From assembly GCA_963726455.1 (NCBI GenBank), contig CAVSCK010000005.1, positions 576,001-640,000 of the forward strand: 64,000 bases of DNA, in the 5' to 3' direction. A model generated the notes under the pieces. That model did not search any database. It was not told the DNA's origin and saw only the letters and a program-made list of their open reading frames with translations. Below, piece by piece: positions 39,152-46,339 of this stretch. Origin of the DNA: an uncultured bacterium. Lineage in GTDB: Bacteria; Zixibacteria; MSB-5A5; CAIYYT01. The position numbers and the translations under genes are program-made. Every line of letters starts with the position of its first letter. Within the stretch, counting starts at the first letter, position 1.

Positions 39152-40531
39152 TTGTTCAAGAAGATTCTGATCGCCAATCGCGGCGAGATAGCGCTTCGTA
39201 TTATTCGCGCCTGCCGCGAACTAGGCATTCGCACGGTTGCGGTTTACTCCGAAGCTGATATTGACTCACTGCACGTCAAATTTGCCGATGAAGCGGTCTG
39301 TATCGGACCGCCCAGATCCACTGAAAGTTATCTTGATCCCAAGCGAATAATCGCGGCGGCCGAGATTACCGGCGCGGAAGCGATTCACCCCGGGTATGGC
39401 TATCTAGCTGAAAATGCCGATTTCGCCGAGATCTGCGGTTCCTGCGGACTTGTGTTTATCGGGCCGCCACCCGCGGCGATTCGAGCGATGGGCGACAAAG
39501 TAAATGCCAAACAGACCATGAGGGCTGCCGGAGTTCCGGTGATACCAGGAAGCGAAGGCGGAGTAGCTGATCCGAGCGAAGCCAAGAAGATAGTCGACGA
39601 GATCGGTTATCCAGTAATTATGAAGGCAGCGGCAGGCGGCGGTGGCCGAGGCATGAGAATTGCGCGAAATCAGGCCGAATTGGAGAGCGGTTTCAAGACC
39701 GCCCAGATGGAAGCGCAGGCGGCGTTTAACAATCCGGAAATATATATTGAGAAATACCTGGAAAATCCCCGCCATATCGAGATTCAAATCCTTGCCGACC
39801 AACATGGTAATGTTGTTCATCTTGGGGAGCGCGACTGTACGGTACAGCGTCGGCACCAGAAATTACTTGAGGAATCGCCGTCGTCAATGGTATCTCCGGA
39901 ATTGCGGGCTAGAATGGGCGCCTCAGCTGTGAAAGGCGCCAAGTCAGCGGGCTATCAGAACGTCGGCACCGTTGAGTTCCTGCTGGATCGAGACGGCAGC
40001 TACTATTTTATGGAGATGAATACCCGGGTGCAGGTGGAACATCCAGTGACCGAAGAGGTTACGGATATTGATATCATTGCGGAGATGCTGCGAATATCGG
40101 CGGGAGAGAAGCTCAATTTGACACAGGATGATATCAAAATTACCGGTTATGCGATCGAATGCCGCATAAACGCTGAGAATCCTGAGGCGAATTTTGCGCC
40201 GTCACCGGGGTTGATTACGTCATTTCATGTGCCGGGCGGACATGGTGTGAGAGTTGATACCCATGCTTATGCCAAATACGTCGTGCCGCAATATTACGAT
40301 TCGATGATTGCGAAGTTGATCGTGCATCACAAGAATCGGGCGGACGGCATTCAAAAGATGCTGCGGGCACTGGATGAATTCGTGGTTGAGGGGATCCATA
40401 CGACAATTGATTTTCACAAGAAAATATTGCGCGATCCGGTTTTTCAGTCGGGAGTATTTGACACCGGGTTCGTGGAAGATTATTTTAGGCGGACTAAGGG
40501 GGCGGTCCAGAATGTGGACAAGGTCGTATAG
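39152..40531 (+). CDS. accC: Acetyl-CoA carboxylase biotin carboxylase subunit
   Basis: [64 protein letters not shown]. Confidence 0.97.
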
Positions 40532-40543
40532 GTTGGAGGTATT

Positions 40544-40924
40544 ATGAATATCCCTGAAGGCTTGAAATACACACGCGAGCATGAATGGGTCAAGGTAGAA
40601 AATAACGTGGCGGTGGTCGGCATTACCGATTACGCCCAGGGGGAACTGGGAGACATCGTTTTTGTGGAACTCCCGACAGTGGGCAAACAGTTCAAGCAGA
40701 TGGATGCGTTCGGAACCATCGAGGCCGTGAAAGCGGTCAGCGAAATGTTCACGCCGTTGTCAGGCGTGGTTAAGGAAACCAACAAGGCGTTGGAAAAGGA
40801 CTCGACGGTTATCAATAGAGACCCGTACGGCGACGGCTGGATTATCAAGGTCGAGAAGTTTGATCCCGCCGAGATCAATTCGCTGTTGGACGCCGCCAGT
40901 TACCGCAAACTGTTAGAGGAATAA
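40544..40924 (+). CDS. gcvH: Glycine cleavage system H protein
   Basis: YTREHEW, GITDYAQGELGDIVFVELP, IEAVKAVSE lipoyl Lys, DPYGDGW. Confidence 0.97.
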   Translation: MNIPEGLKYTREHEWVKVENNVAVVGITDYAQGELGDIVFVELPTVGKQFKQMDAFGTIEAVKAVSEMFTPLSGVVKETNKALEKDSTVINRDPYGDGWIIKVEKFDPAEINSLLDAASYRKLLEE

Positions 40925-40928
40925 CTAT

Positions 40929-42290
40929 ATGACATTCGTGCCTCACTCCGATCGTGAGCGTCAGGAGATGCTGCGCGAGATCGGAGTCAGCCGCTTTGAA
41001 GAGTTGCTTGCGGGCATTCCGGAAGAGCTGCGGCTGAAAGAACCGTTGGATCTGCCTGAGCCGCTCTCGGAATTCGAGACGGTGAAGATTATGGCGGAGC
41101 TGGCTGCAAAGAATCACACGACAGCCGACTTCGCCAATTTCATGGGCGCGGGCGCTTACGATCATTTTATTCCGGCGATTGTCGGCCATCTCACCGACCG
41201 TTCGGAATTCAAGACTGCCTATACTCCCTATCAGGCGGAAGTGTCGCAAGGAACGCTGCAGGGAATCTACGAATTTCAGTCGTCAATCTGCCGGCTGACC
41301 GGAATGGATGTTGCCAACGCGTCGATGTACGACGGCGCCTCAGCGGCGGCCGAGGCGGTGCAGTTGGCGCTCAATGTTACGAGCCGCCGGAAGGTGGTGG
41401 TGTCCACGCTGGTGCATCCGCATTATGTCGACAGCATCAGGATGTATCTGGGCGGAGAAGATATCGAGATCGTCAAAGTCAGACATGACAACGGAATCAT
41501 CGATGTCGACGACTTACGCGCCAGGATAAAGGACGCCGCCTGCTTCGTGATGCAGAATCCCAATTTCTTTGGCATCATCGAACCGACGGATGACTTGGCG
41601 AAGATCGTGAAGGAGTCGGGCGCGCTTCTAATTGCCGTAACTAATCCTATTGCGTTGGCGTATCTGAAGACACCGGGAGAATTCGGCGCCGATGTCTGTG
41701 TCGGCGAAGGACAGCCCCTGGGAAATAGTTTGAATTTCGGCGGACCGTATTTTGGTTTCTTTGCCACGCGAAAGGAATATGTCCGCCAATTGCCGGGTCG
41801 GCTGACGGCAATGACAAAAGACAAGAACGGCAAGCGCGGTTTTTGCCTGACGTTACAAACTCGCGAGCAGCATATCCGCCGCGACAAGGCGACCTCGAAT
41901 ATTTGCACGAACGAAGCGTTGTGTGCACTGGCCGGGACGATATATATGGCGGCATTGGGCAAGGAAGGCCTGAAAGAAGTGGCGCGGCTCTGTTTCAACA
42001 AGGCGCACTATCTGAAAGAACAACTTTGTACGATACCGGGAGTCAAACTGGCTCACGATCGGCCGTTCTTTATGGAATTTGTCCTGAAGTTCCCGACGCC
42101 GGCCAAGGATGTCTTCGATCGCCTGGTTGAGCGCAAAATCTTTGCCGGAGTGCCGACGGCCAGATTCTTGTGGGAAGATGATTGTCTTATAGTGTGCGCT
42201 ACAGAAAAGCGTACCAAAAACGAAATTGATTTTTACCGAGACTCATTGCGAGAGGTGATGGTTCAAAATGCCGTTCTGTCCAAACTGTGA
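40929..42290 (+). CDS. gcvPA: Glycine dehydrogenase subunit A
   Basis: FMGAGAYDH, TAYTPYQAEVSQG, NASMYDGA, LQTREQHIRRDKATSNICTN. Confidence 0.97.
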   Translation: MTFVPHSDRERQEMLREIGVSRFEELLAGIPEELRLKEPLDLPEPLSEFETVKIMAELAAKNHTTADFANFMGAGAYDHFIPAIVGHLTDRSEFKTAYTPYQAEVSQGTLQGIYEFQSSICRLTGMDVANASMYDGASAAAEAVQLALNVTSRRKVVVSTLVHPHYVDSIRMYLGGEDIEIVKVRHDNGIIDVDDLRARIKDAACFVMQNPNFFGIIEPTDDLAKIVKESGALLIAVTNPIALAYLKTPGEFGADVCVGEGQPLGNSLNFGGPYFGFFATRKEYVRQLPGRLTAMTKDKNGKRGFCLTLQTREQHIRRDKATSNICTNEALCALAGTIYMAALGKEGLKEVARLCFNKAHYLKEQLCTIPGVKLAHDRPFFMEFVLKFPTPAKDVFDRLVERKIFAGVPTARFLWEDDCLIVCATEKRTKNEIDFYRDSLREVMVQNAVLSKL

Positions 42291-42636
42291 GACCGAGTAT
42301 AAGGGTCATGTCTCTGTTTGTCCGGAATGTGGAGAGCATCTCATCGACACGTCCGTGGAAGATTTGGACGACCTGTCGGATGAGATGGAAGATGACATGG
42401 TCCTGCTGTATCGCTCCGCCAGCCGCGCCAATTCGGACGCTCTGATGGATGCGCTGAGGGATGCGGGAATCAACTATGTGTTTAAGGCGGCTGAGGATGC
42501 CGGTCCGCGGTCGAAGAAGGGCCTCTATCGTACGGCCTTTGTCGACGGAGAATTCTTCGTAAACGAAGAGGACTTTGATAATGCCAAGGAGGTCGCGGAG
42601 TCGATACTGGGCGATCTCGAAGAAGATCTGGAATAA
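42268..42636 (+). CDS. Zinc-ribbon plus DUF2007-like (putative signal-transducing) protein, paralog 1
   Basis: MPFCPNCETEY....CPECG; LMDALRDAGI...FFVNEEDFDNAKE. Confidence 0.8.
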   Translation: MPFCPNCETEYKGHVSVCPECGEHLIDTSVEDLDDLSDEMEDDMVLLYRSASRANSDALMDALRDAGINYVFKAAEDAGPRSKKGLYRTAFVDGEFFVNEEDFDNAKEVAESILGDLEEDLE

Positions 42637-42681: not shown

Positions 42682-43119
42682 ATGCCGCATTGCCCCAAGT
42701 GCAAGCGTGAAATCACCGATGAGAACACCTACTGTCCCGACTGCGGTACGCGGTTGGTGATGAGTCTGCCTGTGGAAAGCAGCTCAAACGACGACAGTGT
42801 TGACGCAATCTTGCTGTTGAAGGCGAACAACAGTCTGCAGGCAGAACTGCTGGCTTCGGCGTTGGAAGAAGAAGGGATTCCGTTTCTGGCCAAGGGACTG
42901 GGAATCGTTGACGGTTTGGGAGGAGTCGGAGGCGGAGATGTGATGTCCGGCGCATTTTCATCGCCACGTGCGGTGGAGATCTGGGTGAATCCGCGCGACC
43001 TTGACCGCGCCAAGGAACTGATGGCGGCGCAGAGCGGAAGCGAGTTGGGAGAGGACGAATCCGTGGAAAGTAGCGAGGAAAATTCTGATTCCGGGTCTAA
43101 TCGCCCGAAGAAAGGGTGA
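42682..43119 (+). CDS. Zinc-ribbon plus DUF2007-like protein, paralog 2
   Basis: HCPKC...YCPDCG; AELLASALEEEGIP...IWVNPRDLDRAKELM. Confidence 0.82.
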   Translation: MPHCPKCKREITDENTYCPDCGTRLVMSLPVESSSNDDSVDAILLLKANNSLQAELLASALEEEGIPFLAKGLGIVDGLGGVGGGDVMSGAFSSPRAVEIWVNPRDLDRAKELMAAQSGSELGEDESVESSEENSDSGSNRPKKG

Positions 43120-43130
43120 CAAGGTAGAAC

Positions 43131-43547
43131 ATGCACTATTGCCCGCAATGCAGATATGAATACCAGCAGTCGGTGAAGACCTGTCCCGACTGCGGTTCGA
43201 GGATCATCGACGGTGAAATGCCGGACCTGGGTGTCGAAACGGAAGAACAGAAGCGCGTAAACGAAGAAGACGCGGTGGCGCTTTTTGAAAGCGCGGATTA
43301 CATAAAAGTGCGATTTCTGCAGGATCTGCTTGAACAGGAAGGGATTGCCTTCTTCGCAAAGAAGTACGGAAGGGTCGAGCCCTCGGAGCTTTATACGGGC
43401 GCCCAAACCTCATCGCCTGCGGTAGGCGATTTCACCGGAATCTTTGTCGCGCCCGGTGATCTGCCGCGTGCAAAAGAGCTGTTGCAGGAATTGGAGAATA
43501 GCAAGCCGGTTGATGAGGATGATGCTCCTTCCGAGGAAGAGAAATAG
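43131..43547 (+). CDS. Zinc-ribbon plus DUF2007-like protein, paralog 3
   Basis: YCPQCRYEY....CPDCG; LQDLLEQEGI...IFVAPGDLPRAKELL. Confidence 0.82.
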   Translation: MHYCPQCRYEYQQSVKTCPDCGSRIIDGEMPDLGVETEEQKRVNEEDAVALFESADYIKVRFLQDLLEQEGIAFFAKKYGRVEPSELYTGAQTSSPAVGDFTGIFVAPGDLPRAKELLQELENSKPVDEDDAPSEEEK

Positions 43548-43556
43548 AGTTAGACA

Positions 43557-43985
43557 TTGCATTACTGTCCGGAGTGCCGATACGAATATAAGCTGCATGT
43601 GACCGTCTGTCCTGATTGTGGGACGACGCTGGTTGACGGTGAAATGCCCGACCGGAAGGTTACTGAGACAGTGGCGCAAAGCCGCGAGAATGAAGCGGAC
43701 GCTGTGATACTTCTGGAGAGCTCAGATTACCTGAAGCTGCGATTCCTGCAGGATTTGCTCGAACAGGAAGGAATTCCCTTCTCCGCGAAGAAATACACGC
43801 AATACGGAGGCGTTGAGACCTCAACACTTTACACGGGAATCCAATTCTCGTCGTTAACGGTTGGCGGTCTGGCCAGAATCTTCGTGGCCCCCGGCGATTT
43901 TGCGCGGGCGAAAGAGCTGCTGAAGGAATTGGAAGATAGCAAACCGATTGAAGATGAAGATACTCCCTCTGAGGAAGAGAAATAG
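43557..43985 (+). CDS. Zinc-ribbon plus DUF2007-like protein, paralog 4 (recent duplicate of paralog 3; TTG start)
   Basis: YCPECRYEY....CPDCG; near-identical tail PSEEEK. Confidence 0.82.
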   Translation: MHYCPECRYEYKLHVTVCPDCGTTLVDGEMPDRKVTETVAQSRENEADAVILLESSDYLKLRFLQDLLEQEGIPFSAKKYTQYGGVETSTLYTGIQFSSLTVGGLARIFVAPGDFARAKELLKELEDSKPIEDEDTPSEEEK

Positions 43986-44825
43986 ATGAAATACATAATC
44001 GTGTTATTTGCGCTGCTGTTGGCGCTGTGGCTGCCGGCAAAGGCGACTCAGACGATCGGCGATCTGAAGCTGGCGACGAATTTCGATTCGTTGATGACCC
44101 AGGCGCAGCAATCGCAGAAGGTGATCGTCCTGGAATGGTATACCGATTGGTGAGTGTGGTGTGGGAGAATGGCAGATTCGACACTGCCTGATTCCTACGT
44201 TCAGAAGTTTCTGAACAACTTTGAAATTGGAAAGATCAATGCGGAAGTCGATACCGTGACGGCGGCGCGCTACGGCGTCAGAAGTTATCCCACCATAACG
44301 ATTCTCAAACCCAACGGAGTTGAGATCGACCGCCTGGTGGGGTACTATCAGCCGGCAGAGTTCGTCGGTGGAATTGTCAATGCGCTGTCTGGGATAGGCA
44401 CGCTGGAGGATTTGCTGAACAAACTGGCTGCCAAACCAAAGGATGCGGATTTGTTGTTCGAGGTGGGACAGAAATATCGCTGGCGCGGTGACTATGACAA
44501 AGCCGCGGCATACTTTCAGCAGGTGATGGCGCTGGATCGCGACAATGCCAAGAAGCTGGCGGCGCAGGCGGCTTTCAATCTCGGACACATGCAGTACAAG
44601 GACAAAAACTATCCGGCGGCGGTCGCGCTGTGGCAGAACCTGAGGAAATCATATCCGCAGGATTCCAACAGCATGGAAGCGGCATTGATGATTGGTGTGG
44701 CGTACCAGAAGGCCAATGATTTCAAGAACGCCAAAGTGACTTTCAGGCAGTTCCTGAAGGAGCATCCCGATACGGAAGAAAAGGATTGGATTAACGAGCA
44801 GTTAGCCAAGATGGAGAAGAAATAG
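43986..44825 (+). CDS. Exported thioredoxin-fold plus TPR selenoprotein (Sec at codon 56, TGA 44151-44153), 279 aa
   Basis: ATG 43986 starts a signal peptide that reads in frame to LEWYTDW-TGA-VWCGRM, a W-U-x-x-C motif; downstream INAE..YGVRSYPT..GVEIDRLVGY is thioredoxin-like, followed by TPRs; SECIS-like hairpin after the TGA. Confidence 0.85.
44167..44194 (+). promoter_or_regulatory. Candidate bacterial SECIS element
   Basis: GAAT-GGCAG-[ATTCGACA]-CTGCC-TG-ATTC hairpin starting 13 nt after the in-frame UGA. Confidence 0.6.
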
Positions 44826-44831
44826 ATAGCG

Positions 44832-46287
44832 ATGAAGAATCCCGATAGTCCTCTGATTTTCGAACTGTCGTGCGAGGGCGAGAAGGGATATTCGCTGCCC
44901 GAAGTGCGATGTGCCGGAACTGCCGCTGGAGAAGCTGATCGGCGCCGCGAATCTGCGCGCCAAAGATGCAGCGCTGCCGGAGGTTCCCGAGAATGAAGTC
45001 GTCCGGCATTATATCCGGCTGTCGAATATGAATCACCATATCGACAAGGCGATTTATCCGCTCGGCAGTTGCACGATGAAGTACAACCCCAAGGTCAATG
45101 AAAAGACGGCGGCCGATCCGGGTTGGACGGAATTACATCCATTCCAGCCGGCGCGAACGGCGCAGGGCGCGTTGCAACTGATGTATGAGTTGGGTCGGAT
45201 GCTGGCCGAGGTTGCCGGAATGGACGAAGTCACTCTGCAGCCGGTCGCGGGTGCCCAAGGTGAGTTCACCGGAATCCAACTGGCGAAGGCATATTTCAAA
45301 CATAAGGGTGAGAATCGTCTCAACGTGATTATGCCCGATTCGGCTCACGGGACCAATCCGGCCTCGGTGACGATGTCCGGATACAAGCCGACGCAGATCA
45401 AGTCGAGCGAGCAGGGAATTCTCGATCCGGCGGAATTGGAGAAGCTGCTCGACGACAAGACGGCGTTGGTCATGCTGACGAATCCGAATACGCTGGGCCT
45501 GTTCGAGCGCCAGATTTTGCGGGTGGCGGAATTGGCGCACCGCAAGGGCGCATTGATGTATATGGACGGCGCGAATCTGAATGCCTTGATGGGAATAGCG
45601 CGGCCGGGTGACATGGGATTCGATATTCTGCATATTAATTTGCACAAGACCTTCGCAACTCCGCATGGCGGTGGTGGTCCGGGTGGCGGCGCAGTCGGAG
45701 TCAAGAAACTGCTGGAGCCATACCTGCCGCTGCCGATCGTCTGCAAAGACGAAAAGCAGTATTACTTCGACTACGATCGTCCGCTGTCGATCGGCCGGAT
45801 GCATAGTTTCTACGGCAATTTCGGCATGATGGTGCGGGCGTATACCTATATCCTGATGCATGGCGGCAAAGGACTGCGTGACGTTTCCGAAGCGGCGATT
45901 CTCAACGCCAACTATCTGAAAGAGAAGCTGCGCAAGCGGTACAAACTGGCGTACGATTTTGTTTGCCAGCACGAGTTCGTGCTGTCGGGCGACAACCAGA
46001 AGAAGCTCGGCGTCAAGACGATTGACATTGCCAAGCGGCTCTTGGACTATGGCGTGCATGCGCCGACGACCTATTTCCCGTTGATTGTGTCGGAAGCGCT
46101 GATGATCGAGCCGACCGAGACCGAGAACAAACGGTCACTGGATGAATTCGTGAGGATCATGCTGGCGATTGCAGACGAAGTCGAAACCAACCCGGAGATC
46201 GTCAAGAATGCGCCGCAAAACACGCCGGTAGCGCGCTTGGATGAAGTCTACGCCGCGAGAGAGTTGAATGTAGCGTATCGGGGGTAG
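44832..46287 (+). CDS. gcvPB: Glycine dehydrogenase subunit B (+1 indel near 44900)
   Basis: [20 protein letters not shown] from ATG 44832, continuing in the ORF 44911-46287 frame; [37 protein letters not shown]. Confidence 0.96.
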
Positions 46288-46308
46288 GTAAATTCTGCTA
46301 TGTTCTTG

Positions 46309-46339
46309 AAAGGCAGGAGCCAACGGCTCCTGCCTTTTT
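46309..46339 (+). terminator. Rho-independent terminator after gcvPB
   Basis: AAAGGCAGGAGCC-AAC-GGCTCCTGCCTTT followed by a T run. Confidence 0.85.

Follow-up and report, generated by a model that had tools for sequence, protein, structure and literature searches.

The DNA considered here (the window) is a 64,000-nt stretch of a contig from an uncultured bacterium of the Zixibacteria (GenBank assembly GCA_963726455.1, contig CAVSCK010000005.1, positions 576,001 to 640,000), and positions given below without a contig label refer to its forward strand. We found that the gene at 43986-44825 very probably encodes one protein and not two, namely a genuine, unannotated and exported selenoprotein in which a thioredoxin (Trx) domain is followed by tetratricopeptide repeats (TPR) and in which UGA codon 56 is read as selenocysteine (Sec, U). 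We put the probability of this reading at roughly 0.88.

The region 43986-44825 (plus strand) forms a single frame of 279 codons and a stop, whose sole in-frame TGA lies at 44151-44153 (codon 56). Its ATG at 43986, preceded by a GAGGAAGAG stretch, abuts the TAG of the preceding gene (43983-43985), and the frame closes with the TAG at 44823-44825. As the original prediction had described, this frame runs from the ATG through the TGA into W-Y-T-D-W-[TGA]-V-W-C (residues 51-59), where the TGA occupies the first position of a thioredoxin WCxxC motif. Ordinary open reading frame (ORF) calling divides it into 43986-44153 (55 aa) and 44154-44825 (223 aa), and the gene has indeed been missed by standard annotation, as had been claimed. 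A search of a collection of 5.8 billion proteins returned 63 relatives, 25 of them full length (264-316 aa) and 38 short; 33 of the short ones measure 217-222 aa and begin at the Met after the UGA, including the window's own 218-aa entry. Where they are named, the short entries are called "tetratricopeptide repeat protein" or "TolA-binding protein", and some of the full-length ones "thioredoxin domain-containing protein".

Read through the TGA, the product comprises a signal peptide, a Trx-fold domain with the U-V-W-C motif and a TPR domain, as indicated by the frame, Pfam and AlphaFold2. The putative signal peptide (MKYIIVLFALLLALWLPAKA, 43986-44045), judged by eye, has its predicted cleavage after A-K-A and equivalents in the homologs. 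The 65 homolog N-termini examined carry either a signal peptide or a lipobox Cys (e.g. ...S-C or ...G-C), the latter in several families, and a few of these signals lie behind a longer called N-terminus; the protein thus probably works outside the cytoplasm, in agreement with the export that had been predicted. We considered whether a wrongly called start had produced this hydrophobic stretch, and rejected the idea, since the stretch is kept as signal peptide or lipobox in the homologs. The Trx-fold domain (44046-44390, about residues 21-135), similar to DsbD-gamma and DsbH by Foldseek, matches Pfam PF00085 Thioredoxin over residues 31-122 (45.0 bits, cut-off 23.5), as well as PF13098 (36.3 bits) and PF13899 (30.3 bits), each with a cut-off of 27. 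In the homolog alignment the TGA (44151-44153) falls at the attacking residue, U56, of a W-U-x-W-C redox motif, and the resolving Cys59 (44160-44162) is invariant. W58 is likewise invariant in this alignment of 23 homologs, as is P102 of the cis-Pro loop S-Y-P-T (residues 100-103), and the helix begins at residue 57. The TPR domain (44403-44822, about residues 140-279) has seven helices, resembles BamD and YbgF by Foldseek and by NCBIfam scores below cut-off, and contains Pfam TPRs at residues 154-263. Pfam and the alignment therefore bear out the earlier view that the UGA replaces the attacking Cys and that the rest of the fold and the TPRs follow in the same frame. With 23 homologs supplied, AlphaFold2 folded the read-through protein as one two-domain model (mean predicted local distance difference test (pLDDT) score 94.1, predicted TM-score 0.85), with strands and helices on either side of residue 56; its only low part is the signal peptide (pLDDT 57-67 at residues 1-20).

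The homologs were collected by a six-frame search of 60 relatives and of the window's own genome, in which all full-length matches, second copies included, were taken and aligned to the window's protein. A full-length homolog was present in 58 of the 61 genomes, with 65 loci in all. At the codon position of U56, 40 loci have TGA, 23 have TGC or TGT (Cys), one has GGC (Gly) and one AGT (Ser), and every match flagged with one TGA has it at precisely this codon (40/40). The Cys/TGA alternation that the original prediction proposed to look for at codon 56 is thus present. The 40 Sec forms come from 40 different, independently assembled genomes belonging to 11 of the 16 family-level groups sampled, and their frames are intact on both sides. 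On a tree of 64 rows, from which the partial and frameshifted locus L035 was excluded, the Sec label needs 10 changes, at least five of them forced by well-supported branches; Sec and Cys have therefore been exchanged repeatedly, a behaviour described for redox selenoproteins in the text of PMC1794560. Some copies embedded among the glycine cleavage (gcv) genes have lost redox residues (SxxS in L079 of genome G046; CxxS in L072, L078 and L085; GxxC in L039), and second, unlinked Sec copies carry the motif U-G-S/P-C in five genomes of one family and U-G-A-C in G046.

The genome, an assembly of five contigs (3.64 Mb) with a marker-gene completeness of 100%, contains tRNA-Sec, selA, selB and selD, all of which the original prediction had named as genes to look for. 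The tRNA-Sec scores 70.9 bits (gathering score 47) and is called SeC with anticodon tca by ARAGORN; it lies side by side with selB and selA on the minus strand (G000:C3:128061-131394). The selD gene (C4:1791814-1792734) itself has an in-frame TGA in its active-site C-A-G-U, followed after 13 nt by the hairpin GGCCAAA-GUU-UUUGGCC. A second selD-like gene (C3:645393-646257) is divided over two frames. Within the class, selA was matched in 59 of 61 genomes, including all 40 with a Sec form, and the two genomes without a match are Cys-form genomes, 89% and 52% complete.

Other candidates in the same genome came from a crude scan for a TGA with open frames on both sides and a hairpin with GT in its loop, which is not a selenoproteome census; it gave 251 candidates, nearly all noise, among which by eye only selD, the Trx-TPR gene and two DUF1573 paralogs looked real. 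These exported paralogs have an in-frame TGA in P-G-U-G-C and lie at G000:C5:467632-468390 (L097:333-1091, plus strand) and G000:C4:603174-603986 (L098:275-1087, minus strand). Each TGA is followed by a first hairpin and then, at +36, by a second one with a 7-bp stem and a GGU loop. The DUF1573 UGC family (PF07610) is listed as a known selenoprotein family in the text of PMC13188914. Downstream of the C5 copy, at a distance of about 2.2 kb, there is a weak CcdA-like match. None of the 12 AhpC/Prx matches and two molybdopterin-enzyme matches in the genome has an in-frame TGA.

Downstream of the TGA of the Trx-TPR gene, RNAfold predicts two adjacent hairpins on the plus strand, both kept in the Sec forms of the window's family. 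H1 (44161-44198) has an upper stem GGCAG/CUGCC (44171-44175 / 44184-44188) closed by the loop AUUCGACA. It contains the hairpin of the original prediction, GAAU-GGCAG-AUUCGACA-CUGCC-UG-AUUC at 44167-44194, which is thus present and conserved in Sec forms, but whose loop lacks the G of the bacterial selenocysteine insertion sequence (SECIS) model. H2 (44199-44216), GUUCAGA-AGUU-UCUGAAC, is frozen in Sec forms and is the candidate SelB-binding element. By itself the structure in the window is not beyond chance (71-nt stretch, minimum free energy -22 kcal/mol, z = -1.93, 9 of 200 shuffles folding as well); it is conservation that makes the case. The window's family contains 16 Sec forms, whose proteins are 55-73% identical, and three Cys forms. 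Over the 66 nt from the TGA the Sec forms are 91% identical per column; the upper stem of H1 reads GGCRG/CUGCC in 16/16, the sole change being A/G opposite U, and 16 of the 18 positions of H2 are identical in all of them, synonymous sites included. Only the outermost pair of H2 varies (G-C in seven Sec forms, C-G in one, unpaired G-G in eight). Among 15 Sec forms, synonymous-codon identity reaches 0.83-0.89 in the 10-codon windows starting at codons 54 and 69, against 0.37-0.74 in all windows starting outside codons 49-74, and codons 72-76 (V-Q-K-F-L) as well as that of Leu67 (CTG) are each represented by one codon in 15/15. In the three Cys forms of the family H2 differs by synonymous changes and H1 by A-to-D and L-to-Y/F replacements, and the predicted folding energy of positions +4 to +66, which ranges from -17.4 to -25.9 kcal/mol among the 16 Sec forms, amounts to -6.5, -9.1 and -14.5 kcal/mol in these Cys forms.

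The same distinction is visible across the class. In the 85 nt that follow the codon, 37 of 39 Sec forms, compared with 13 of 23 Cys forms, contain a perfect hairpin of 6 bp or more; when GG or GU is required in the loop, the counts are 35 of 39 versus 4 of 23. The published bacterial SECIS model places a G in the first two loop positions (the G[G/U] rule) and the start of the loop 16-37 nt after the UGA. Eight Sec forms of four other families have a hairpin at +11 after the UGA with different stems and the loop UGGAU (UGGAC in one), and this hairpin fits the model. In these eight rows five of the six pairs change on both sides and 95.8% of cells are paired, compared with a mean of 59.7% in shuffled controls (0/500 as high) and 23-40% in slid controls.

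Several observations weigh against the selenoprotein reading or its RNA component. The case for selenium insertion at residue 56 is indirect, coming as it does from sequence comparison, and so are the arguments for the redox direction and the partner of the protein. The RNA that the earlier check against a SECIS model concerned is conserved in Sec forms only, but neither of its hairpins fits that model alone: H1 follows the spacing and energy rules and has no G at loop positions 1-2, and H2 follows the loop, stem and energy rules with a loop that starts 52 nt after the UGA. A search of 44100-44300 against Rfam, with E values of up to 10 allowed, yielded no credible match, and the whole window has no family at gathering score and no riboswitch. 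Compensatory changes were found in none of the 11 pairs within the window's family, because the stems are invariant there, and the eight covariation rows from the other families were chosen out of 39 Sec forms for having the hairpin, so that their count is not blind. One Cys form, L045, retains the +11 hairpin with UGGAU loop of its Sec sister L038, which fits a recent Sec-to-Cys change with a SECIS not yet decayed. Among the public sequencing runs searched, no RNA run contained the locus; two soil-metagenome runs each held 6% of its words, and their contigs come from relatives (less than 95% alike for most pieces) and do not span 44151-44153. Finally, apparent single-base indel errors occur in other parts of the assembly, as in gcvPB.

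These points have to be set against what other explanations of the TGA would entail. If the TGA were a true stop, the locus would encode a 55-residue exported peptide and a separate cytoplasmic TPR protein of 218-223 aa, which are exactly the two products of standard ORF calling, and the 218-aa form is what public databases hold for the window and many related genomes. TGA is moreover a common stop here, as the original prediction had remarked: in the window, gcvPA, exbB and one of the Zn-ribbon genes terminate with it, as do 367 of the 1,022 open frames of at least 400 codons in the genome, so there is no global reassignment of the code. We nevertheless consider termination very improbable, since the 218-aa product would begin in the middle of the Trx fold, without beta1-beta2 and the start of the active-site helix, the sequences on either side of the TGA are conserved together as a single protein, in 23 homologs the frame continues through a Cys codon and the downstream RNA constraint is confined to TGA forms. 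A nonsense mutation or an assembly error is the least credible of the explanations. It could draw on the single-base errors or frameshifts of gcvPB, of a CcdA-like gene (three frames) and of the second selD-like gene (two frames), and on the fact that the runs found do not cover the codon; however, the same TGA recurs with intact flanking frames in 40 loci of 40 independently assembled genomes from 11 of 16 family-level groups, and a single-base indel error would not make a conserved in-frame TGA. Slightly less improbable, though still far from likely, is read-through without Sec, either with near-cognate tRNAs inserting Cys or Trp or with tRNA-Sec charged with Cys: Cys evidently works at this position in 23 homologs, the downstream element of the window's family is off the consensus SECIS model, and selenium in the protein has been deduced and not obtained from chemistry. 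Against it stand a complete Sec machinery that is itself Sec-dependent (selD has U), the look-alike hairpins after the UGA of selD and of the two DUF1573 UGC genes, and, in other families of the gene, canonical SECIS hairpins at +11 whose stems covary. We therefore retain the selenoprotein reading.

As for the part of the RNA that SelB would bind, H2 is favoured over H1 because no stretch of the gene is more strongly frozen, because two other families have an AGUU-loop hairpin built on quite different stems (UUAUUC/GAAUAG at +47 in one, AAGACC/GGUCUU at +59 in the other), and because selD and the two DUF1573 genes of the same genome have look-alike hairpins. Like H2, the latter have 7-bp stems with a GUU or GGU loop after the UGA; in the DUF1573 genes another hairpin stands ahead of the GGU-loop hairpin, as H1 does before H2, so that these selenoprotein genes share the two-hairpin layout. 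The proteins encoded by selD and the DUF1573 genes are unrelated to the Trx-TPR protein and serve as SECIS comparators only. In E. coli and Moorella, the loop G and U are the contacts of SelB. H1 would then be a folded spacer that brings H2 near the decoding site.

The gene is set in a cluster with the order accC, gcvH, gcvPA, four Zn-ribbon and DUF2007 paralogs, the selenoprotein gene and gcvPB, assigned by ORF and Pfam analyses; the genes from gcvH to gcvPB are on the plus strand. gcvH occupies 40544-40924 and gcvPA 40929-42290; the four tandem paralogs lie at 42268-42636, 42682-43119, 43131-43547 and 43557-43985; gcvPB (44832-46287) starts 7 nt after the stop of the selenoprotein gene, and a hairpin resembling an intrinsic terminator (14-bp stem and T run, 46308-46338) ends the cluster. 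The gaps in the cluster measure 0-46 nt, with one overlap of 23 nt, and those between the selenoprotein gene and its neighbours 0 and 7 nt. The co-transcription with gcv that had been proposed is thus suggested by gene spacing and by the terminator after gcvPB. The four Cys-rich Zn-ribbon neighbours of the original prediction proved to be tandem paralogs, each with an N-terminal CxxC...CxxC zinc ribbon, a DUF2007 domain and an acidic tail; they match weakly (17.5 bits vs a cut-off of 130) the NCBIfam model "zinc ribbon-containing (seleno)protein DG". Relatives have zero to three recognisable copies at the same place, most of them one to three.

Two neighbours deserve a remark of their own. gcvPB is out of frame in the assembly owing to a 1-nt insertion at about 44898-44901 (CCC vs CC in a same-genus relative), its conserved N-terminus being in another frame than the rest; a relative's contig also lacks one letter at 44901, and the break is either an assembly indel or a real frameshift. 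The biotin carboxylase gene (accC-type, 39152-40531) lies 13 nt upstream of gcvH; it is unusual next to gcv genes and is also there in the same-genus loci L047 and L048.

Position between gcvPA and gcvPB is shared by 54 of the 65 loci and by 54 of the 58 genomes, even where protein identity has fallen to 25-30%, and these embedded copies comprise 30 Sec, 22 Cys, one Gly and one Ser form. This gene order, together with the tight spacing and the absence of a terminator until after gcvPB, could mean that the selenoprotein and the Zn-ribbon/DUF2007 proteins are a redox accessory of glycine cleavage, acting for example on the lipoyl dithiol of GcvH or in envelope redox coupling. We regard this as unlikely. 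The homologs carry export signals, whereas GcvH and GcvP are proteins of the cytoplasm; in five genomes belonging to one family the copy in gcv has Cys, and a second copy, unlinked to gcv, has Sec; in G046 the gcv copy is SxxS, presumably redox-dead, and the Sec copy lies elsewhere; and in four genomes (three of one family and one more) the gene occurs solely outside gcv. A GrdA match was not found in the genome, although the control genomes gave none either, which makes this result uninformative. Gene order may also persist merely because promoter-less genes depend on the operon. The suggested tie to glycine catabolism therefore stands as far as gene order is concerned, but the export signals place the protein outside the cytoplasm. 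It remains conceivable, although we doubt it, that two things hold jointly: that the Trx-TPR and Zn-ribbon/DUF2007 proteins are glycine cleavage/synthase accessories, whose genes may have stayed in place between gcvPA and gcvPB ever since the class arose and which may couple glycine metabolism to envelope thiol/selenol redox, and that the window's family uses a non-canonical two-hairpin SECIS, in which H2 (7 bp, AGUU loop), 46 nt after the UGA, may be brought close by the conserved spacer hairpin.

For the selenoprotein itself we propose the following mechanism. UGA56 would be recoded as Sec by the organism's own SelB and Sec-tRNA(Sec), under the direction of an RNA element within 65 nt after the UGA made up of the adjacent H1 and H2. 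The protein would be exported via a cleavable Sec-type signal peptide and, outside the cytoplasm, its DsbD-gamma/DsbH-like Trx domain with a U-x-W-C selenylsulfide/selenol centre would act as a thiol-disulfide oxidoreductase, while the C-terminal BamD/YbgF-like TPR domain would hold a partner or substrate protein. CcdA/DsbD transmembrane-domain homologs are present in the genome and no VKOR match was found there (DsbB was not searched); for these reasons a role as reductase or isomerase, presumably fed by a CcdA-type membrane protein, is favoured. One of the CcdA/DsbD transmembrane-domain homologs (G000:C3:313294-313938) matches in three pieces in different frames with stops, owing to single-base errors or to a broken gene.

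These results correct a systematic annotation error, in that dozens of entries under the names "TPR protein" and "TolA-binding protein" cover only the C-terminal four-fifths of a redox selenoprotein, and they add a Trx-TPR architecture to the prokaryotic selenoproteome. A Zixibacteria selenoprotein with frequent Sec/Cys exchange is useful for asking why Sec is kept. Potentially more interesting are the non-consensus two-hairpin element and the class-wide embedding in a split gcvP. The former offers a natural experiment for SECIS models, as sister lineages have a textbook +11 hairpin and the window's lineage two frozen hairpins at odds with either the spacing or the loop rule in the consensus model on which prediction programs rely; the latter, a fixed place between two P-protein genes, is a testable association of an envelope oxidoreductase with glycine cleavage.

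Compared with proteins of known structure by Foldseek against the PDB, the sole full-length matches (264-282 columns) occupy ranks 1-3 and are 3qou (E. coli YbbN/CnoX) and 3qdn (its Salmonella homolog). CnoX/YbbN, a chaperedoxin, likewise consists of a Trx domain followed by a TPR domain, but identity is 12-14%, the TM-score 0.24-0.30 and the root-mean-square deviation about 23 A, and the arrangement of the domains differs; no YbbN appeared in the list of the PDB sequence search. CnoX is moreover cytoplasmic and, in E. coli, without CxxC, whereas the Trx-TPR protein is predicted to be exported and has UxxC. For the Trx domain the best matches are DsbD-gamma (1uc7, 1vrs, 2fwe) and DsbH (2ju5), with target-normalised TM-scores of 0.65-0.75 (0.70-0.75 for DsbD-gamma), and DsbD and DsbH share with it the extracytoplasmic location. 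The NCBIfam model of DsbD (NF001419) scores 49.2 bits (cut-off 330) in its gamma-domain region 458-567 only; unlike DsbD, the Trx-TPR protein has no membrane or alpha domain, has an added TPR domain and has Sec in place of Cys. The likeness to BamD (3qky) and YbgF (2xev) concerns the TPR part only, and the corresponding NCBIfam models remain below cut-off (BamD, TIGR03302, 66.5 bits vs 81.4; YbgF-CpoB, TIGR02795, 52.7 vs 90.1). No NCBIfam model exceeded its cut-off, and the nearest seleno-specific one, TsoB, reached 39 bits vs 805.

Literature searches, judged by titles, gave nothing relevant on a bacterial Trx-TPR selenoprotein, and the supplementary tables of surveys may list the family. The words TPR, tetratricopeptide, Zixibacteria and "glycine cleavage" are absent from the main text of a 2026 review (PMC13188914), as are TPR and tetratricopeptide from that of a 2022 review (PMC9312934), and the supplements of both may likewise include it. 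A search of the ESM Atlas with a full-length Cys homolog (P0019) gave about ten clusters of Trx and TPR proteins of 276-303 aa, labelled mostly Acidobacteriota and one Spirochaetota, which are leads only, without alignment. Bacterial selenoproteins with a Trx fold and UxxC are well known: the texts of PMC13188914 and PMC1794560 tabulate Trx (PF00085), a "thiol:disulfide interchange protein" (PF13098), DsbA-like and DsbG-like proteins and Redoxin. With the PF13098 selenoprotein, for which the reference is from Geobacter, the Trx-TPR protein shares the Pfam domain and the UxxC motif. It resembles the known members in having Sec for the attacking Cys of CxxC, Cys homologs, repeated Sec/Cys exchange and a truncated mis-annotation, and differs from them by its C-terminal TPR domain and by the fixed position of its gene inside a split gcvP. 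The exported Trx-TPR selenoprotein is therefore a new family within the well-known Trx-fold UxxC selenoproteins, a solid addition that will not surprise specialists.

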